From assembly GCF_054482525.1 (NCBI RefSeq), contig NZ_CM137006.1: a stretch of DNA of 64,000 nt. One strand, 5' to 3'. The position numbers were made by a program, and so were the translations under genes. Each line of letters starts with the position of its first letter. Positions within the stretch are counted from its first letter, which is position 1. Shown here in pieces: positions 1,259-38,454 of the stretch. The notes below the pieces were generated by a model, which was not told the DNA's origin, searched no databases, and was given only the letters and a program-made list of their open reading frames with translations.

Positions 1259-2665
1259 TTACAGCCGTTCTTGAATAAGTGTGCCTAATTGTTTTACCGC
1301 CTGTTCTTCACGTTCTCCCCACTGCCACGCGGTATTAAAACGGAAAAAACGTGACCAGTTTTCACCGGTAGAAAACATTTTACCCGGCGCAATACTGATA
1401 TGATGCGTCAGTGCCGCCAGGCTTAATTCGCCCGCATCTAACGGCTCGGGGAGCTCCAGCCAGAGAAAATAACCGCTGTCATTATGATGAATTTTCACTT
1501 CCGCAGGCAGATAACGCAGCAGTGCCTGCCAGGCACGTTGTTTACGTTCCGCAAGCTGGCGACGCAGGCGACGAAGATGGGCGTCGTAACGGCGCGTGGA
1601 AAGGTAATCCACCAGCGCAAGCTGCATCGGTGAGCTGGTGGAAAGCGTACTCATCAACTGCAAGCGTTGAATTTTACGTGCATGTTTTCCGGCGGCGACC
1701 CAACCAATACGAAAACCAGGCACCAGACATTTCGAAAACGAAGAGCAATGCAAAACGCCATCGTGGCGATCCCACGCTTTCGCAGGCAGCGGTTTTTCCC
1801 GTCCAAAATAAAGTTCGCTGTACACGTCATCTTCAATCAGCGTTACGTTGTACTGATTGAGCAACGCTACCAGCCGCGCTTTTTTCTGCGGCGTTAAGGT
1901 AAATCCGAGTGGATTCTGGCTATTAGTCATCAGCCAGCACGCTTTCACCGGATACTCCTGCAACGCCAGTTCCAGCGCCTTGAGATCAATCCCTTCGTTA
2001 ACATCCGTCGCCACCGATAACGCCTTCAGCCGTAACCGCTCCAGCGCCTGCAACGCGCCGTAGAAACAAGGATTCTCTACTATCACCCAATCGCCCGGTT
2101 CAGTGACCGCTTGCAAACTGAGGTTTAATGCCTCTAACGCCCCGGCGGTGATGACAATTTCATCAGGAGAAATAGTAATGCCCTGTAAGGCATAGCGACG
2201 AGCAATAGCCTGACGCAGTTCTGCGTTTCCTGGCGGTAAGTTTTCAATCACGCTCATCGCCGTGGCGGTTTTGCTTACCTGCGCCAGCGAGCGGTTTAGT
2301 TGTTGGAGGGGGAAAAGTCGCGGGTCGGGAAAGGCCGAGGCAAACGGAACTACCGACGGATCGCGACTGGCCTGCAACATATCAAAAATATAGGTGTTGA
2401 TATCGACTGCTTCATCTCGAGTGACTGGAATGACTGGCGCTTTCGGCATTTTTATTGCCTGTGGCGCAACGTAATAACCCGACTGCGGTCGCGCGATAAT
2501 ATATCCCTGACTTTCGAGCAACTGATAGGCATGGCTGACAGTCATAAAGCTCATGCCAGAAAGCGCCACCTGGTCACGCAACGAAGGCAAACGATCGCCA
2601 GGTTGCCAGATACCCGACGCAATCTGCTCGCGTAATTGTTCTGCAAGCTGCTGGTATTTTTTCAT
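1259..2665 (-). CDS. ydcR: MocR-like GntR-family regulator with fused aminotransferase domain
   Basis: 468-aa ORF; N-terminal GntR helix-turn-helix region followed by a fold-type I PLP aminotransferase-like domain. Confidence 0.9.
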   Translation of the reverse strand: MKKYQQLAEQLREQIASGIWQPGDRLPSLRDQVALSGMSFMTVSHAYQLLESQGYIIARPQSGYYVAPQAIKMPKAPVIPVTRDEAVDINTYIFDMLQASRDPSVVPFASAFPDPRLFPLQQLNRSLAQVSKTATAMSVIENLPPGNAELRQAIARRYALQGITISPDEIVITAGALEALNLSLQAVTEPGDWVIVENPCFYGALQALERLRLKALSVATDVNEGIDLKALELALQEYPVKACWLMTNSQNPLGFTLTPQKKARLVALLNQYNVTLIEDDVYSELYFGREKPLPAKAWDRHDGVLHCSSFSKCLVPGFRIGWVAAGKHARKIQRLQLMSTLSTSSPMQLALVDYLSTRRYDAHLRRLRRQLAERKQRAWQALLRYLPAEVKIHHNDSGYFLWLELPEPLDAGELSLAALTHHISIAPGKMFSTGENWSRFFRFNTAWQWGEREEQAVKQLGTLIQERL

Positions 2666-2743
2666 TATCGAATCGTTATTATGTGCAGGTGATTCGGCAG
2701 TCTATATCAGTTGTTAAAAATGACAACTTTTCATAAACTGTTA

Positions 2744-3181
<438 letters not shown>

Positions 3182-3205
3182 GTCATTAACCTTTTTAATT
3201 GGCGA

Positions 3206-3382
3206 TTAACTCAAACCGAGTTGTTTCAGAATAGCTTTATGCAAGGGTTCTTTAATCTCTTCGCTGGGGAGACGCGGCATGACACTGCGCCTCCCGTGAA
3301 AACTGAGTTTTAAATGGTTGCTGCCATTCGCTACATCGACGCCCTGAGATTCGAGCCAACGTCTGAACTCGCTTTGTTTCAC
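3206..3382 (-). CDS. hicA: HicA mRNA-interferase toxin, GTG start
   Basis: Not in the ORF track (58 aa, GTG start). Hand translation of the reverse complement: VKQSEFRRWLESQGVDVANGSNHLKLSFHGRRSVMPRLPSEEIKEPLHKAILKQLGLS, stop at 3206-3208. Confidence 0.85.
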   Translation of the reverse strand: MKQSEFRRWLESQGVDVANGSNHLKLSFHGRRSVMPRLPSEEIKEPLHKAILKQLGLS

Positions 3383-3603
3383 ATCGCCTCCCTGCCGCTG
3401 AGTATATCAACAAAGTAAACATTAGTGTTTACCTCCGTATGTAATTTGCTCGAAAATAGCACTTAATCGCCGCAACGGCAGAATGCAATGCAAAATCAGG
3501 AAGGAAGATTCCAGAATTTCTTTGCGCTAATTTGCAAAACTGAATAAGAACCTCAAGAAACGATCGGCATCATAGCGGCAAAAGGTGAGAAAAAGGTGGC
3601 GGG

Positions 3604-3834
3604 ATGTTTACGAAGGCGTTATCGGTTGTCTTATTAACGTGTGCGCTGTTCTCAGGACAACTCATGGCAGGGCACAAAGGACATGAATTTATGTGGGTAA
3701 AGAATGTGGATCATCAGCTACGTCATGAAGCGGACAGCGATGAATTGCGTGCCGTGGCGGAAGAGTCGGCGGAAGGTTTGCGCGAGCATTTTTACTGGCA
3801 AAAATCGCGCAAACCAGAAGCGGGACAACGTTAA
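3604..3834 (+). CDS. yncJ: Small secreted protein of unknown function (DUF2554)
   Basis: 76-aa ORF with N-terminal signal-peptide-like segment MFTKALSVVLLTCALFSGQLMA. Confidence 0.8.
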   Translation: MFTKALSVVLLTCALFSGQLMAGHKGHEFMWVKNVDHQLRHEADSDELRAVAEESAEGLREHFYWQKSRKPEAGQR

Positions 3835-3844
3835 GTCGTTTGAT

Positions 3845-3875
3845 GCCGGATGCGGCGTAACGCCTTACCCGGCAG
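3845..3875. repeat. REP (repetitive extragenic palindromic) element
   Basis: gccggatgcggcgtaacgccttacccggc closely matches the E. coli REP consensus GCCGGATGCGGCGTGAACGCCTTATCCGGCCTAC; lies between convergent yncJ and ydcP. Confidence 0.7.
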
Positions 3876-3925
3876 GCAATATCATGCAGATTCAATAAGT
3901 TGTGAGTAACCAGAAAACTGGCGTT

Positions 3926-5887
3926 TTACCCTTTTCGCTTCGGCAATGTTTTCAGCAGCTCATCCGGACTTACGGATGCCACTACGCTTCCCGGTAACGG
4001 CATTTTCAGTATGTGATTTTTGATTTTGCCAATGACGTGCATCTCGCATGGGCGGCAATCAAACTTTAGCGTTAATACTTCATCGCCGTTAACCAGTTGC
4101 ATTGGCGTCGCCTTCCAGCTTTTGATATTGCCTTTCGCCTGTTTCGGGCACAGATTAAAGGCAAAGCGCAGACAATGCTTGGTGATCATCACCGGGACTT
4201 CGCCCTTCTCTTCATGTGCCTCATACGCCGCGTCAATCAGCTGCACACCATAGCGATGATAAAATTCACGCGCTTTCTGGTTGTATACGTTCGCGAGGAA
4301 ACTCAGATGCGTTTGCGGATAAACCGGCGCAGGATCAGCAACCGGTTTACGGCTGCCCCGCTGGTAACTGGCAAGACGTGCAGCATCCAGCATGTCGGCG
4401 GCTTCACGGCGGAACTGGTTTAACAGACTGTTTGATACAAACAGCGCACCCGGCAAATTAATTTGCACATCGCGGGCGTAATAGATGGTTTGCCCCAGTT
4501 TTGCCAGACCATCCTTTAGATTGTTCATTGCTTTTTCGGCGTTATTGGCTTCGTCGAAATGCCCGTCCAGCGTATGCGTGATGCTGACACCCTCTTCACT
4601 GGTGAGGGTCAGAATCAGTTGTTCCTGCCAGCCGCCCAGTTCAATGTCTACCGCCACCCGACGTTCGCTGGATGTTTTTGTCAGTGCCTGCTGCCAGTTA
4701 TGATCAAGATTACGGTTTAGTGGGTGATGCGGGCGAATTTTGTGCAACTCTGCTGGCATTTCATTGGGCCAGACGCGGTACTGATTTTCTCCGGTTTTCT
4801 CGACCGTATTGGCACGAAAGCCGACGACTTCACGTTTAATCATCACGTTCAGGCCATCGCCATTTGCCAGTGGTTCGGAAACGGCAACATCGAGATGATC
4901 TTTCGCCACTTTCAATACTTCACCCACCGGCAGGCCGATAAATTTCGGCGAATCGAACGCGCCAATATCGCCTTTACGGGCATTCACAAAATAATCTGTG
5001 CTACCACGGTTGAAAGTCTTTTCCGTCGATGGAACAAAGAAATGTTCAGTACGACCTGATGAAGCACGCGCCAGATCGCCACGTTCTTCAATAATGGCAT
5101 CCAGCATTTGGCGATAATGCGCGGTGATATTCTTCACGTAGCTCATATCTTTGTAACGCCCTTCAATCTTGAAGGAGCGTACGCCAGCATCAATCAGCGC
5201 GCCGAGGTTGGCAGTCTGATCGTTATCTTTCATCGACAGCAGATGTTTTTCATAGGAAACCACCCGCCCCTGATCGTCTTTCAATGTGTATGGCAAACGG
5301 CACGCCTGCGAGCAATCGCCACGGTTGGCGCTACGCCCTGTTTGCGCATGAGAAATGTAGCACTGACCCGAATAGGCCACGCACAGTGCGCCATGAATAA
5401 AGAATTCAATGGTCGCGTCCGTGGCCTGGTGAATCGCGCGGATCTGCTCAAGATTCAGCTCTCGCGCCAGCACAATCTGCGTAAAGCCAACATCAGAGAG
5501 GAACTTCGCTTTTTCGACTGTACGAATATCGCACTGCGTACTGGCGTGCAGTTCAATCGGCGGAATATCAAGTTCCAGAATCCCCATATCCTGAACAATC
5601 AGCGCATCGACGCCGGTCTGGTAGAGGTTGGTAATCAGCCGTTGCGCAGGTTCCAGCTCATCATCATGCAAAATGGTGTTAAGCGTGACAAAAATTTTTG
5701 CACCATAACGATGGGCAAACGGCACCAGTTCGGCAATATCTTTCAGGCTATTACTGGCATTATGACGGGCACCAAAACCAGGGCCGCCGATATAAACAGC
5801 ATCGGCACCGTGCAAAATAGCTTCGCGGGCAATGGCGGCATCGCGTGCCGGGCTTAACAGTTCAAGTCGATGAGAAGATACGGTCAC
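3926..5887 (-). CDS. ydcP: Peptidase U32-family protein (23S rRNA 5-hydroxycytidine synthase RlhA)
   Basis: Track ORF 3926..5929 (667 aa). The 653-aa form I recall for K-12 starts at the in-frame GTG at 5887 (VTVSSHRLELLSPARDAAIAREAILHGADAVYIGGPGF...). Confidence 0.85.
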   Translation of the reverse strand: MTVSSHRLELLSPARDAAIAREAILHGADAVYIGGPGFGARHNASNSLKDIAELVPFAHRYGAKIFVTLNTILHDDELEPAQRLITNLYQTGVDALIVQDMGILELDIPPIELHASTQCDIRTVEKAKFLSDVGFTQIVLARELNLEQIRAIHQATDATIEFFIHGALCVAYSGQCYISHAQTGRSANRGDCSQACRLPYTLKDDQGRVVSYEKHLLSMKDNDQTANLGALIDAGVRSFKIEGRYKDMSYVKNITAHYRQMLDAIIEERGDLARASSGRTEHFFVPSTEKTFNRGSTDYFVNARKGDIGAFDSPKFIGLPVGEVLKVAKDHLDVAVSEPLANGDGLNVMIKREVVGFRANTVEKTGENQYRVWPNEMPAELHKIRPHHPLNRNLDHNWQQALTKTSSERRVAVDIELGGWQEQLILTLTSEEGVSITHTLDGHFDEANNAEKAMNNLKDGLAKLGQTIYYARDVQINLPGALFVSNSLLNQFRREAADMLDAARLASYQRGSRKPVADPAPVYPQTHLSFLANVYNQKAREFYHRYGVQLIDAAYEAHEEKGEVPVMITKHCLRFAFNLCPKQAKGNIKSWKATPMQLVNGDEVLTLKFDCRPCEMHVIGKIKNHILKMPLPGSVVASVSPDELLKTLPKRKG

Positions 5888-5959
5888 ATTCTTATCCAGT
5901 AGCTGAAAAATGGCGGCTATTTTAGCCACAAGCGCGACGTTGCGAAATAGTTTTCCCGC

Positions 5960-6496
5960 TTAACTGCGTGGGTAATGGATGAGAGAATGAAAATGTACGA
6001 TTTGCTCCCCACCATTACGATAGATATGCGTAACGTCTGCAGCAAATCGAGCGCCTTCTCCACAATTAAGGCTCTGCCATTCACCATCAACGCACAGATC
6101 AAGTTGCCCATCAATGACGACAACATGTTCGATTACTCCCTTCTCATGGGGCGTCGATTCACTTAATGCACCTGGTGCCATCTGAATCGAGAAGTGTTCA
6201 AAGCAGAGTTGTGGATCATAAGGAAACAGTGAAGTGATCACCATCGCCTGCTGTTGCGGATCATAAACTGAAGGCGTATCGGACTGCGGCGGAGAAATAA
6301 ATGTCGAAAATGGCACGTTCAACCCGGTGGCAATTTTCCATAATGTCGCGACCGTCGGGCTGGACTCATTACGCTCAATCTGCCCTAACATCGCTTTAGA
6401 AACGCCCGTCGCTTCTGCCAGTCGCGAAAGACTCCAGCCGCGCTGCTGACGTAGCTGTTTAAGTGTGGTGGATAAAAAGCGAGTGAGATTTTCCAT
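5960..6496 (-). CDS. ydcN: XRE-family HTH transcriptional regulator with C-terminal cupin domain
   Basis: 178-aa ORF MENLTRFLSTTLKQLRQQRGWSLSRLAEATGVSKAMLGQIERNESSPTV... (HTH) followed by a cupin-like C-terminus. Confidence 0.85.
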   Translation of the reverse strand: MENLTRFLSTTLKQLRQQRGWSLSRLAEATGVSKAMLGQIERNESSPTVATLWKIATGLNVPFSTFISPPQSDTPSVYDPQQQAMVITSLFPYDPQLCFEHFSIQMAPGALSESTPHEKGVIEHVVVIDGQLDLCVDGEWQSLNCGEGARFAADVTHIYRNGGEQIVHFHSLIHYPRS

Positions 6497-23688: not shown

Positions 23689-23902
23689 GGTTCCTCCTTA
23701 TCGTTCCCTTAAGAATACTGCGCGAGATAATAATGAGAAGCGGAGCACTCTGAAAGGAGGAAGTCGTATTTCCTTAACCGCCACTCCGCAAGCCTGCCAT
23801 ATCTTTTAAGGAAATGCTGTAGATAAACATTATTCATCTTGCAGCTGAGAATTGTATTTTTCTGAATTCCTGAATTTTTGCCCTTACCGTTTTAGAATTA
23901 AT

Positions 23903-23932
23903 AAAAAACCCGGCGCTAAATGCTTACCGGGT
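23903..23932 (-). terminator. Rho-independent terminator downstream of hrpA
   Basis: On the minus strand: hairpin acccgg...ccgggt followed by a T-run (plus-strand aaaaaacccggcgctaaatgcttaccgggtttt). Confidence 0.6.
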
Positions 23933-33470: not shown

Positions 33471-35783
33471 TCAATGCAACTCATCAAGTTTTCTCATCGC
33501 TTGTTCCCGTATTGCGCGCGTCTTAGCGTTAAGCGCCAGCTGGCGGACTAAATCCAGTTCAGGTTTAACAAGCTCTAACGCCAGCAAAGGATCACGTTTC
33601 AGCCTCGCCTTCAATACATCAACTGGGAAACGGGGATTATTCATCGCCATAATCCACCACTCGGGATCAATTTCTGCCGCCAGTGCCGCAGACGGTGTAT
33701 GGCGATTGTTAAGTGCGCCGAACTTGAAAAATGTAAGATTGCTTTTCGCCAGCGTACTCCACCATATACGATCCGGTTGTTTTGCCAGTTTATCCAGTTG
33801 CGCTAACGCATCGGGGTCAAGTGCATAATAAACACGTAACGCTTCGTTAACCTGCGCACGAGAGCTGTTTTCCTGCCTCAGAAAAAACTTCGCCCAAATA
33901 TCATTGCGTGGCATATTTTGCTGTAATTCCTTGAGGACAACAGCGGGTAAATTATCCCAACTAACTAATGCACTCTCTAAAAAGTCCCAGCCTTCCGAAC
34001 GTATCAGAGAGGTGGCATTTAATAGCATCTGGTCATCAACTTCACCGTGGCTAATCAGCTCAGACAAAATCATATCAGCGCTGGTTTCATATGCATCTGA
34101 ATCTGCTTTGGGATTATTTTTTCGATGCGATAAAGCGCGATGCCAAATTTTTTGTTTCATCGCCGTACTCAGATACTGATTTTTCGCCAGATTACTCCAC
34201 CCCGCAGGATCGTTGAAACGTGTCAATAATCGTTGTAAAGCAGCGTCAGAGTGAATTACCTGCATATCCCGACAGCAAAAATAGGCAGGTAATTTTTTCT
34301 CCATCTTTTTAACAAAATTAAACTGTAAGTTATCTGGCAATGCTAAAAATAACACACGTATTAGATCATCGTCATTCTCGAATTTTTGGTGTAAATATAC
34401 TGCTATTTTGTCACTCTCTTGTGGCGTCATCCGCAACAATTGACCATGGTGTTTCATCTCTGCCAGCTTTGACGCTAAGCTTGTGACAACATCGTTTGAT
34501 GAATCGTTCGCCAACTGCATTGCCTGATTGTAGGTGAGTTGTCCTCCAGCACCGACCTGACGAATAGAGAAATCATCACTGCGGATATAGCCATCAATAA
34601 TGGATTCGGGCAATAACCACGCATCTTTATAAAGCTCCTGAATGATCATATCCCAATCTCTTTTCGCCAGAGTCATGACGATATCCAGAGGGAGATTTTC
34701 ACGTAGCGCAAGATTCAACGGACCGACACCATCAGGTAGATGACTCATTCGCGTCATTATTTCGACAGAGAGCGGTTCACGGTCGAGCAACCCCAGAACA
34801 ACAGGCTGGTAACCCAATTGCTGATCGGTCAACTCCAGAATCTCATTGTCAGGCATATATCTCGCCATACTTTCAATCGTTTGTTCATCATTGCTATTAA
34901 TAAGTTGTTTGCGTAGGTTAGCTGAAATTCCTTTAAGCCTTGGGAGAGTTCGCATTATGGCAAGATCAAATGTCGCAATGTCTCGCCCTTCAAATGCAGC
35001 AACTTTGCCTTCATCCAGCATTTGCAATTCCTGCACTAACTCAGGAGAAGGCTTAGGGCGAAACAGCGCTTCTTTTTTCATCAGATTACAGACATTCCCT
35101 GCCATGCGAATATTGCTTCGCTTAAAAATTTCTTTCAGAGCATCTTTATCATTTATTAGGCCCCAATAATATGCATCAGGATTTATTATCGTCAGCGCTT
35201 TTTTGACATTTTCAGTGTCATTTTTGTCTCCCGCACGGACCATGAATTCACTATTTGTCGAAGACACAACAACAGGTGCAATTATGTCATTGATAAATAT
35301 CCCGCGCGCATTAATACTTCCCTTAATCGTAGACGGATTATCGTAATATGAGTCGATAAATACCAGTCCACTTGCATTTATCGAACCGGTAATTAACAGT
35401 GGTGAATCCGTAACTATATTCGTTGCCGTCACATCACCGAGAATAACCCATGGATTAGAAAGAGAGAAAGTGGAAATATTACCTTTGACTGTCAAATTGC
35501 CAAGAACAATCAATTTTTGATTACTCTCTATATTACCTTCTACCACTAAATCGCCACGATGCACTTTCCAGTCCGATGCAGATAAACCGAAGGGGACAAG
35601 ATTCACACTACTGTTGATAGCTTGTTCAACTTGTTGTTTATCTTCAGCGGTAGCCGCAGAAAAAAATGGTTCAATATCAAATACATTTGCAACACATCGA
35701 AGTTCCGCCTGTACTGGAAGACTCAGCATAAACAGGGGAAGTAAACCTATCCAGCTGCAAATCCTGGGCTTAAACATATGCAC
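33471..35783 (-). CDS. ydbD: Large secreted protein of unknown function
   Basis: 770-aa ORF with N-terminal signal peptide (MFKPRICSWIGLLPLFMLSLPVQA); true start may be the ATG two codons in. Confidence 0.8.
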   Translation of the reverse strand: MHMFKPRICSWIGLLPLFMLSLPVQAELRCVANVFDIEPFFSAATAEDKQQVEQAINSSVNLVPFGLSASDWKVHRGDLVVEGNIESNQKLIVLGNLTVKGNISTFSLSNPWVILGDVTATNIVTDSPLLITGSINASGLVFIDSYYDNPSTIKGSINARGIFINDIIAPVVVSSTNSEFMVRAGDKNDTENVKKALTIINPDAYYWGLINDKDALKEIFKRSNIRMAGNVCNLMKKEALFRPKPSPELVQELQMLDEGKVAAFEGRDIATFDLAIMRTLPRLKGISANLRKQLINSNDEQTIESMARYMPDNEILELTDQQLGYQPVVLGLLDREPLSVEIMTRMSHLPDGVGPLNLALRENLPLDIVMTLAKRDWDMIIQELYKDAWLLPESIIDGYIRSDDFSIRQVGAGGQLTYNQAMQLANDSSNDVVTSLASKLAEMKHHGQLLRMTPQESDKIAVYLHQKFENDDDLIRVLFLALPDNLQFNFVKKMEKKLPAYFCCRDMQVIHSDAALQRLLTRFNDPAGWSNLAKNQYLSTAMKQKIWHRALSHRKNNPKADSDAYETSADMILSELISHGEVDDQMLLNATSLIRSEGWDFLESALVSWDNLPAVVLKELQQNMPRNDIWAKFFLRQENSSRAQVNEALRVYYALDPDALAQLDKLAKQPDRIWWSTLAKSNLTFFKFGALNNRHTPSAALAAEIDPEWWIMAMNNPRFPVDVLKARLKRDPLLALELVKPELDLVRQLALNAKTRAIREQAMRKLDELH

Positions 35784-35840
35784 TCCATGCCATTAAAAAA
35801 GAAACAAAAGGGAAATGCATCTTTCCCTTTTGTATATTCG

Positions 35841-36701
35841 TTATTCTCGCGAAATACCATCCAACGTAGACAACACTTCCTCAGAAAGATGCAATTTTTC
35901 AGCAGCCATATTCTCCCGTAAATGCGCAACAGAAGACGTCCCTGGGATCAGCAAAATATTCGGTGAACGTTGTAACAGCCACGCCAGCGCCACCTGCATT
36001 GGTGTTGCGCCCAGGCTCGCTGCTACATCCGAAAGTGTGGAGGATTGCAGCGGCGTAAAGCCCCCAAGCGGGAAGAACGGCACGTAAGCAATGCCATCGC
36101 GGGCCAAATCATCAATCATTGCGTCATCAGCACGATGAGCAATGTTGTATTCGTTCTGCACACAGACGATTTCGGTAATCTTACGCGCCTCTGCAACCTG
36201 CGTCGGTGTAACGTTGCTCAGACCAATATGTTTTACCAGGCCTTGTTGTTGCATCTCTGCCAGCACGGTCAGGCTGGCTTCAATCGATCCTTCCGCCGGG
36301 CCATGACCATCCCCCATCATGACGCGCAGGTTAACCACATCCAGTACGTCCAGGCCGAGATTACGTAGATTATCGTGTACCGCTTTTTGCAGCTCTGCCG
36401 GAGAAAATGCGGGCAACCAGGAAGCATCCTCACCACGCCGTGCACCAATTTTAGTGACAATTGTCAGGTCGTCAGAGTAAGGATGTAGCGCTTCGCGGAT
36501 AATCTGATTGGTGACGTGCGGACCATAAAAGTCGCTGGTATCAATATGATTGACGCCCAATGCCAGCGCCTCGCGCAGCACGGTTATAGCAACGTGGCGA
36601 TCTCTTGGGGGGCCAAAAACCCCAGGGCCTGCCAGTTGCATCGCGCCATAACCAAGACGGTTAACGGATTTTGTACCGAGAGTAAATGTGTTGCTGCTCA
36701 T
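35841..36701 (-). CDS. ydbC: Aldo-keto reductase
   Basis: 286-aa ORF MSSNTFTLGTKSVNRLGYGAMQLAGPGVFGPP...; AKR family. Confidence 0.9.
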   Translation of the reverse strand: MSSNTFTLGTKSVNRLGYGAMQLAGPGVFGPPRDRHVAITVLREALALGVNHIDTSDFYGPHVTNQIIREALHPYSDDLTIVTKIGARRGEDASWLPAFSPAELQKAVHDNLRNLGLDVLDVVNLRVMMGDGHGPAEGSIEASLTVLAEMQQQGLVKHIGLSNVTPTQVAEARKITEIVCVQNEYNIAHRADDAMIDDLARDGIAYVPFFPLGGFTPLQSSTLSDVAASLGATPMQVALAWLLQRSPNILLIPGTSSVAHLRENMAAEKLHLSEEVLSTLDGISRE

Positions 36702-36832
36702 CGCACCCTGCCCTGTAATAAAACGGATTAAGAAAAATCAGTATAGAAACGAAAAGAGATAAATAATGCGAAGGCGTAAACAAGATTACTGGATAAGTTG
36801 CTCTATTGTCCTTGAAGACACCAAAACAAAAC

Positions 36833-36854
36833 GCCTAAAGCATCGCATCCGGCA
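36833..36854. repeat. REP-like remnant
   Basis: gcctaaagcatcgcatccggca partially matches the reverse complement of the REP consensus (...CGCCGCATCCGGC). Confidence 0.35.
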
Positions 36855-36855
36855 A

Positions 36856-36889
36856 TAAAAAACCGCAACCTGTATCAGCGTTGCGGTTT
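36856..36889 (-). terminator. Rho-independent terminator downstream of paaY
   Basis: Plus strand aaaaaaccgcaacctgtatcagcgttgcggttt: stem aaccgcaac / gttgcggtt; the A-run on plus equals a U-tract after the hairpin on the paaY strand. Confidence 0.65.
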
Positions 36890-36931
36890 GTGTATCACAT
36901 GCTAAAAATTAGAACGTCCAGCATCAGGACG

Positions 36932-37522
36932 TTACTGTTTCGGACGCAGATCCTCATCAAATACCAGACGCTGCCTGCCAGGTTCAACTTCCCGCAATGG
37001 CTCGACTTGATGCAACGTCTGCTTACAGCGTGTCACCAGCACCTGGTACTCATGCGTGCCCTGCTTTTTCCATGCCAACTCCTGCTCACTGAGTTCACGA
37101 ATCGCTTTCGCCGGGCTGCCGACAATCAGGTAATTAGCAGGCATTTCTGCTTTGGCTTTCACAAATGCGGATGCGCCAACAATGCTGTTCTCGCCAATCA
37201 CCGCACCGTCCATCACTACCGCGTTCATTCCCACTAATGCATTGCGGCGGATAATGCAGCCGTGAAGGATAGCGCTATGACCAATATGTCCATCTTCTTC
37301 CACGACAGTATCCTGCTCGGGAAAACCGTGCATAACGCAATTATCCTGAATGTTCGCGCCATCTTTCACCACGATACGACCAAAATCGCCACGCAGGCTG
37401 GCATTTGGCCCAACGTAAACACCCTTGCCGAGAATAACATCGCCGATCAATACCGCTGTCGGATGAACAAAACTCTCTTCTGGCACAACCGGAGTCAGAC
37501 CGTCTATCTGATAAATTGGCAT
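36932..37522 (-). CDS. paaY: PaaY, hexapeptide-repeat thioesterase of the phenylacetate pathway
   Basis: 196-aa [51 protein letters not shown]...; left-handed beta-helix repeats. Confidence 0.9.
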
Positions 37523-38454
37523 AACGCCTCCTGTTCAATATTCAAGCCGCCAAAACGTTGAAAATACAGGCTTCCCGGCGCAGGCAGTTCACCGACCGAG
37601 GTTTCACCTTTTTCACTAACGAACGCTAAAGCAGCAGGCGCTACGCGCTGATAAATGTTGATACACAGCTGACGCGCCGTATGCCCTGCCCAGTGAGCCG
37701 GAAGCAACTCCTCCGGCAACAATGGGTCTTTAAGGACGACACGGCGATAAAAATGGATCAGTAAAAGCTGAATATGAAATGCACGCTCCGGGGTTAACTC
37801 GTCTGCCGCCTCTTTTAACAGCGGCACCAGCGGGCGGAATGACTGAATAAAGGTTTCGTACATGGCATTTTGTTCAGTTAAATGCCAGCACTCTTCTACT
37901 CTGGCACGCAGTGCTGCACGAGAAAGCGCCAGTGGTATTTGCGCTTCAAAACAAATCACGTTATCCGCCACACCCGCTTCATGCAAAAGTGTCTGTACAT
38001 CGGCCAGTTTTTGCGACGGCGATGCCATCAGGCTGGGTGCCAGTGCGCCAAAACCTTGCCAGATCAACTGCTTTTTGACATCAGCCAGCGTTGATTTATC
38101 TAAACCTTCCGAGAGCAACAGGAGCCATTTACCATCCCATGCAGGTTGCTCTGCGCGATAAATTTTACTTTCTGCCCGTCGCGTCAGGCGCAAGCCTTTA
38201 TCACTGAGGCTATAGAAACTGCGTCGCCCGATGCGGGAAACATCCAGCCAGCCTTCTTTATTAAGACGAAACAAAGCGGTGCGCACGAAACGCTCACCAA
38301 ATCCCAGCCCTTCCAGCAAAGCAGCCAGACTACCCAGCCAGATTTCACCACCACGATGGGAAAGTGAATCACCATACAGAGAGGAGATCAAAGATGTGCC
38401 ACTGACAGGAACAGCGTTTACAGCATGTTGGATAAAAGTATCAAGTTTACTCAT
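37504..38454 (-). CDS. paaX: PaaX, repressor of the phenylacetate catabolon
   Basis: 316-aa [55 protein letters not shown]... Confidence 0.9.

Follow-up and report, generated by a model that had tools for sequence, protein, structure and literature searches.

The product of ydbA is an autotransporter of the BigA/YdbA family with the Pfam domains BigA_N, BigA_beta and Autotransporter beta-domain. In E. coli K-12 (NC_000913.3), the gene lies in pieces upstream of pdxI, the order of the locus being paaY, ynbG, ydbA fragment 1, IS2D, a 50-bp fragment 2, IS30C, fragment 3 and pdxI. Differences in gene content have been described for this part of the chromosome. According to the available sections of Goldstone et al. 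2016 (PMC4951805), the stretch from paa to ydbA, flanked by the core genes ydbH/ynbE/ydbL and ynbC/ynbD/azoR, is variable, and full-length ydbA is present in about 42% of phylogroup A genomes; these sections treat gene carriage only and do not describe a remnant, a borrowed terminator or a hairpin. No description of the junction analysed here was found in the literature on ydbA with paaY. Presence or absence of ydbA is an already known polymorphism, i.e. common and ordinary strain variation, to which the present analysis makes a minor addition in the form of the remnant, the borrowed terminator, two junction haplotypes and the polarity given by outgroups.

A ydbA-less allele with the same breakpoints and junction architecture as the window (i.e. 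the whole 64-kb stretch of DNA that was analysed) is carried by O104:H4 2011C-3493, WCHEC115106, GF3-3, ETEC1701 and PCN033. The last of these, a phylogroup D porcine ExPEC strain (PMC4578781), is 100% identical to the window over the junction region (window 36402-37231) and differs from the whole 64 kb by 6 mismatches and by one ~705-bp IS200/IS605 copy that the window lacks. This copy is located between hrpA and ydcF of PCN033 (tnpA 1573939-1574397), the equivalent site of the window being ~23900-23905. The source of the window is thus either a relative almost identical to PCN033 or a different version of the PCN033 genome.

Layout of the paaY-pdxI interval

The gene ydbC is pdxI in current naming and is so labelled in the PCN033 and K-12 annotations. 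In agreement with the distance reported in the initial annotation, the ORF ends show that the paaY stop codon (TAA, 36934-36932 on the minus strand) and the pdxI start codon (ATG, 36701-36699) are separated by exactly 230 bp (36702-36931). The layout given there for K-12, with ydbA split by IS2 and IS30 and occupying several kb between paaY and ydbC, agrees with NC_000913.3; in K-12 MG1655 (b1400-b1406), the paaY stop and the pdxI start are 9,159 bp apart, and the interval is not a short one like that of the window. The reported absence of the ydbA/IS2/IS30 block from this DNA was confirmed, as blastn with the K-12 paaY-ydbA spacer and ydbA fragments 1 and 3 as queries returned 0 matches in the 64-kb window. 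No blastn match to ydbA, ynbG or IS sequence was obtained anywhere in this stretch, which has no coding capacity for the YdbA autotransporter and does not contain the ydbA fragments flanking IS2D and IS30C that constitute the K-12-type pseudogene.

The flanking genes, their order and their orientation are shared with K-12, as are the ydbA terminator and a half-REP, whereas ynbG, the terminator of paaY itself, ydbA, IS2D and IS30C are found in K-12 but not in the window. Identity to K-12 was 98.5% for paaX-paaY and 95.6% for the spacer and pdxI-ydbD (blastn), the latter block pairing window positions 36917..35001 with K-12 positions 1474005..1475920. The blastn alignment ends 1 nt beyond the paaY stop and restarts 9 nt ahead of the ydbA stop, leaving 13 nt of the window unaligned between the two blocks. 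In addition to the 21-codon gene ynbG, the missing block holds the ydbA promoter region, almost all of ydbA and the terminator-like hairpin of paaY (3093-3125 of the extracted K-12 locus, L001). The 207-bp ydbA-pdxI spacer is complete in the window, including the ydbA terminator hairpin and the half-REP, and the deletion is predicted to have left the upstream region of pdxI unaffected. Features of the locus are listed in Table 1.

Table 1. Features at and around the paaY-pdxI junction of the window
Feature	Position	Strand	Evidence and remarks
pdxI (ydbC)	35841-36701	-	ORF; pyridoxine 4-dehydrogenase / pyridoxal reductase, 286 aa, intact
Spacer, 207 bp	36702-36908	-	Full-length homologue of the K-12 ydbA-pdxI intergenic region (blastn); also aligned among five short alleles; pdxI upstream region
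REP-like remnant	36830-36855	-	Left arm GCCGGATGCG and loop; right arm ATCCGGC missing
Intrinsic terminator from ydbA, predicted	36852-36889	-	Inverted repeat and RNA fold; 10-bp stem AAACCGCAAC/GTTGCGGTTT, then TTTTTTATT
Last 9 nt of ydbA reading frame, exact	36909-36917	-	ACGTTCTAA, i.e. ACG TTC TAA, T-F-stop
Junction hairpin, putative weak terminator	36913-36933	-	Perfect 7-bp stem AACGTCC-TGATGCT-GGACGTT, then CTAATTTTTA
Further ydbA 3' remnant	36918-36926	-	TGATGCTG(G), as against TGATGCTG(A) in ydbA
Junction nucleotides C+GTCC	36927-36931	-	Between the paaY stop and the ydbA remnant
paaY	36932-37522	-	ORF and annotation; 196 aa, intact; closes the paaXY unit

A promoter scan detected no sigma-70 promoter-like site in 36600-37050, so that the pdxI promoter was not placed. 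When 35500-38000 was compared with Rfam using a permissive threshold, the sole match was to the patAB leader, in the ydbC-ydbD spacer (35794-35839, minus strand); with a score of 25.9 bits (gathering score 92) and E = 0.22, this match is most likely due to chance and was discarded.

A remnant of ydbA at the junction

On the minus strand, the junction reads ...CAG TAA C GTCC TGATGCTG G ACGTTCTAA TTTTTAGC..., with the left breakpoint at the paaY stop codon or 1 nt after it. The right-hand part of this sequence was compared with the 3' end of ydbA in K-12, O157:H7, ST131, GN4738, strain 315, a divergent Escherichia (L009) and Pseudocitrobacter faecalis. Across this set, the gene ends in the conserved sequence ...GATAAAGG[C/T]GTGATGCT[G/A]AAC[T/G]T[C/T]AAGAAAAC[G/A]TTCT[A/G]A, the core of which is TGATGCT[G/A]AAC-N11-[G/A]TTCT[A/G]A. 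Conservation extends to genomes in which the downstream DNA is unrelated, indicating that the sequence is part of ydbA itself rather than of a target site. In intact alleles, TGATGCTG(A) is followed by 11 nt and then by the terminal 9 nt. These two elements adjoin one another in the window, implying an internal loss of 11 nt (ACTTCAAGAAA/TTCAAGAAAAC), and the string TGATGCTG-G-ACGTTCTAA is equivalent to the conserved ydbA 3' end with one substitution and without these 11 nt. A total of ~18 nt of the ydbA 3' end is retained. The nucleotides C+GTCC to the left of the remnant may be either filler or a remodelled form of AGGCG in ydbA.

The likelihood of a chance match was assessed by randomization. 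Among shuffled versions of the filler, 368 of 200,000 reached an 8-mer match in the final 60 nt of ydbA, as did 759 of 200,000 random 13-mers. As TGATGCTG occurs three times on both strands of the 8.9-kb K-12 block, the significance of the match rests on its position (p about 0.002-0.004). The possibility that the 13-nt filler was copied from another part of the deleted block was also considered and was set aside; there are five 8-nt sub-matches of the filler on the two strands of this block, and these are uninformative except for the match beside the ydbA stop. In K-12, GTCC is also present 21 nt downstream of the paaY stop; a model of three deletions making use of this GTCC is possible, is no simpler and was left aside.

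A repeat search identified no target-site duplication, IS end, IS terminal repeats, att-like repeats or direct repeats flanking the junction, and no IS end within the 13 unaligned nucleotides. The only repeats in its vicinity are two hairpins and two chance direct repeats of 7-8 nt away from the junction, which bears no mark of an IS- or transposon-mediated deletion or of an excision scar. Of the two traces suggested in the initial annotation as worth seeking, ydbA-derived remnants were recovered (i.e. the exact last 9 nt and the TGATGCTG 8-mer) and a target-site duplication was not found at the junction.

Hairpins and terminators downstream of paaY

Two sites on the minus strand, 36860-36889 and 36913-36933, have the sequence of a rho-independent terminator, i.e. 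a GC-rich stem-loop followed by a U-tract. The former comprises the 10-bp stem of the ydbA terminator with TTTTTTATT as its U-tract. This terminator is kept directly after the ydbA stop in K-12, O157, ST131, GN4738 and strain 315, and in the window the ydbA-derived hairpin is now predicted to be the first strong terminator past paaY. The second site arises at the junction itself, overlaps the paaY stop codon and is the first hairpin past paaY; it was identified as a terminator-like site in a scan, as an inverted repeat and by RNA folding. Its stem is imperfect (5/7) in the type II short alleles described below, e.g. O104:H4, and this degradation gives no sign of selection on the hairpin.

The initial annotation described the interval as holding a REP-like remnant and the paaY terminator. 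The first part of this description stands, the left REP arm GCCGGATGCG being present, but the strong hairpin in the interval is that of ydbA and the terminator belonging to paaY is located in the deleted block. A REP has two arms, GCCGGATG...CATCCGGC, of which only the left is found in the window; a complete REP occupies the orthologous site downstream of ydbA in the divergent Escherichia and in Pseudocitrobacter. The remnant is also present in K-12 and is therefore unrelated to the deletion.

Distribution of the short allele

A contiguous short junction was detected by megablast with an 830-nt query across the junction in 2,032 of 5,426 complete E. coli genomes (about 37%), these and the following genome counts being megablast coverage classes and not curated calls. 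A 100-nt junction query undercounts, with 534 genomes as compared to 2,032 for the 830-nt query, because SNPs in the junction interfere with the exact 28-nt seed that megablast requires. With a K-12 right-junction query, the ydbA 3' end was found beside pdxI in 3,077 genomes, and the remaining matches start at query position 506/507, i.e. at the same right breakpoint. For the K-12 left-junction query, many genomes match positions 1-301 only, giving the same left breakpoint. Judged by alignment ends, the breakpoints agree to within 1 nt across about 2,000 genomes. The IS2-50 bp-IS30 signature of K-12 was found in only 366/5,426 genomes, and the full-length IS2/IS30 examples listed, ER1709 and C600, are laboratory derivatives of K-12. 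In RefSeq annotations of the short allele, paaY stands beside pdxI without remark.

These counts bear on whether the short interval could be an assembly artefact produced by collapse or drop-out of a repetitive ydbA. The gene does contain long tandem repeats (294 bp) and its length differs among assemblies (1,673-2,838 aa). However, neither breakpoint falls within these repeats, one being placed at the paaY stop and the other at the very 3' end of ydbA, and about 2,032 complete genomes, sequenced in many laboratories and on many platforms, have an identical junction. An artefact can be discounted almost entirely.

All nine short alleles that were inspected have the arrangement TAAC-GTCC-...-TTCTAA and the same 11-nt internal loss. 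Their common string, TAAC-GTCC-(T/A)GAT(G/A)CTG(G/A)AC(G/A)TTCTAA followed by the ydbA terminator, is that of the window, which shares with the common deletion allele a junction within ~1 nt of the paaY stop and a spacer of ~230 bp. The paaY-pdxI spacer measures 229-231 bp in O104:H4, WCHEC115106, GF3-3 and USMARC-49610. Two junction haplotypes were distinguished. Type I, GTCCTGATGCTGGACGTTCTAA, forms a perfect hairpin and is carried by the window, ETEC1701, Ecol_881 and CFSAN061761, with strain 300444 having the type I string and one extra substitution. Type II, GTCCAGATACTGAAC[A/G]TTCTAA, forms an imperfect hairpin and is found in O104:H4, WCHEC115106, GF3-3 and USMARC-49610. With ydbA as the outgroup, parsimony suggests TGATGCTGAACGTTCTAA as the ancestral short allele. 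This sequence matches ydbA minus the 11 nt at 18/18 positions, strengthening the interpretation of the sequence as a ydbA remnant.

The stretch from ydbL to azoR is structurally variable among E. coli. The ydbD-ynbABCD genes are absent from strain 315 and ST131, and ydbD alone is absent from GN4738 and USMARC-49610. The fea-tynA-paa cluster is absent from O157:H7 and GN4738, is represented by feaR and paaY stubs in ST131 and is reduced to feaR/paaX stubs with an intact paaY in strains 300444 and Ecol_881.

Intact ydbA genes, outgroups and the polarity of the change

Intact ydbA genes are present at the locus in strain 315 (1,673 aa), ST131 (2,838 aa), GN4738 and Pseudocitrobacter faecalis (1,982 aa). 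They fill exactly the site that is empty in the window, where only their last nucleotides and terminator survive. The ST131 gene (2633-6158 of its extracted locus, L089) contains 294-bp tandem repeats, with about 8.6 copies at 92% identity as well as diverged copies, and such repeats probably explain the range of 1,673-2,838 aa among intact alleles. In O157:H7, ydbA is split into two ORFs. Several RefSeq genomes have a ydbA homologue beside pdxI labelled 'EntS/YbdA MFS transporter', which looks like a mix-up of the names ydbA and ybdA; a figure legend in Goldstone 2016 (PMC4951805) also has 'ybdA'.

Outgroups were drawn from a PdxI search of genome contigs. Many of the matches were distant aldo-keto reductases of rhizobia and Burkholderia; the useful ones among the matches listed were E. 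albertii, one divergent Escherichia, Pseudocitrobacter, Kluyvera and Enterobacter, with E. fergusonii, E. marmotae and E. ruysiae not among them. In Pseudocitrobacter faecalis, the order is paaK-paaX-paaY-ydbA-pdxI and the C-terminal domain of the YdbA orthologue is near-identical. The divergent Escherichia has ydbA-pdxI-azoR-hrpA and is 88.6% identical to ST131 over 11.5 kb. In E. albertii NBRC 107761 (L008 4896-6383), ydbL adjoins pdxI, the feaR-feaB-tynA-paa-ydbA block is absent and homology upstream of pdxI is limited to about 51 nt. This junction (ydbL-pdxI, without paa) is a different one and is therefore uninformative with respect to the short allele. DNA identity between E. albertii and E. 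coli is about 81% here, which seems low for this pair of species. Among the matches listed, there was no outgroup in which paaY adjoins pdxI without ydbA.

The presence of ydbA 3' nucleotides and of the ydbA terminator in the short allele, together with outgroups that have ydbA at the same site, indicates loss and not gain, and from these sequences the occupied state looks the older. We conclude that the 230-bp interval is very probably the scar of a single old deletion of ~6.4 kb which took the paaY-ydbA spacer and nearly all of ydbA. The initial annotation had left a choice between an uninterrupted ancestral junction and a deletion that removed ydbA entirely. The second option is the better description as far as the deletion is concerned, although 'entirely' has to be read as 'nearly', given the ~18 nt that are left of the 3' end; the first is contradicted by the ydbA 3' end, the ydbA terminator and the outgroups with ydbA at the site.

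If the short junction were an ancestral site that had never been occupied, ydbA and ynbG would have been inserted in the ancestors of K-12-like strains. The lack of ydbA upstream of pdxI in E. albertii, the high frequency of the short allele (37% of genomes) and the reputation of the region as a hot spot of gene-content variation would all fit such a history. A never-occupied site should nevertheless hold no sequence of the inserted gene, whereas the exact last 9 nt of ydbA, another ydbA 8-mer and the ydbA terminator are present. The target would already have had to encode the C-terminus of a conserved autotransporter, and a second insertion of 11 nt, restoring the frame, would also be required. 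Moreover, Pseudocitrobacter and the divergent Escherichia have ydbA at the same position, the E. albertii junction is not the same empty site, and neither mobile-element ends nor a target-site duplication were found at the junction. On this evidence insertion into an empty site is very improbable, and deletion of ydbA is preferred.

Two qualifications apply to the outgroups. As E. albertii has neither paa nor ydbA, it does not settle the state of the deepest Escherichia ancestor. The paa-ydbA-pdxI block of Pseudocitrobacter could reflect an old horizontal transfer of the whole block as opposed to vertical descent.

Probable origin and spread, and possible mechanism, of the deletion

The sequences flanking the junction were compared between alleles. 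The spacer and pdxI of the window are 99.2% identical to those of strain 315, which has ydbA, and only 95.3-95.7% identical to those of other short alleles, while the flank of K-12, likewise a strain with ydbA sequences, is 97.8-98.5% identical to those of the short alleles of O104:H4 and USMARC-49610. Flank haplotypes do not track presence or absence of ydbA. This discordance, together with the existence of two junction haplotypes, might be taken to mean that the short junction arose repeatedly, through recurrent deletion at a hot spot in different phylogroups. Such recurrence is improbable, since the nine short alleles inspected all share the left breakpoint, the GTCC and the 11-nt internal loss, and the alignment breakpoints of about 2,000 genomes differ by no more than 1 nt. 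A three-part junction of this kind, with microhomology of <=3 bp as a guide, is not expected to form twice. That the same complex junction is found between unrelated flanks favours a single old deletion moved by recombination, and the short junction appears to derive from one event that was then spread and reshuffled by homologous recombination.

The junction departs from a clean two-breakpoint deletion by the extra 11-nt loss and by 4-5 unexplained nucleotides (GTCC), and the exact path to it can be proposed only as a reconstruction. The TAA of the paaY stop (CAGTAAC) and a TAA in ydbA (...GATAAAGGCG..., GATAAAGG) may have served as microhomology, and the 11 nt may have been lost by slippage between AAC repeats, which are AACGT repeats in the Pseudocitrobacter version. 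Were the junction to lie in this TAA, CGTCC would have replaced AGGCG in the next 5 nt. Complementarity to GGACGTT would then have gone from that of a 4/7 quasipalindrome to a perfect match through three clustered changes (AAAGGCG to AACGTCC), all of which could stem from one quasipalindrome template-switch event. Quasipalindrome template-switch mutation is a class of event established in E. coli, and clustered changes are the signature that would be expected of it; confidence in this mechanism is low to moderate.

A more elaborate scenario is that deletion of ydbA is an ancient cross-phylogroup polymorphism under balancing or frequency-dependent selection, with the template-switch hairpin acting as a terminator for paaXY. 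Selection could in that case act on a large surface-exposed autotransporter, e.g. through phage or immune pressure. We regard this scenario as speculative and rather unlikely.

Discussion

The arrangement of K-12, paaY-ydbA::IS-pdxI, is a laboratory form found in a minority of genomes, and a clean deletion of ydbA is present in about 37% of the complete genomes. A strain with the short allele would lack the YdbA surface protein and YnbG. Transcripts of paaXY would now stop at the junction hairpin and/or at the ydbA terminator, so that the terminator predicted to serve paaXY would be one borrowed from the deleted gene. Loss could be told from gain by combining an 18-nt remnant with outgroup synteny. 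The significance of these findings is small; the locus illustrates neatly how the scar of a deletion may be interpreted and cautions against taking the layout of K-12 as ancestral.
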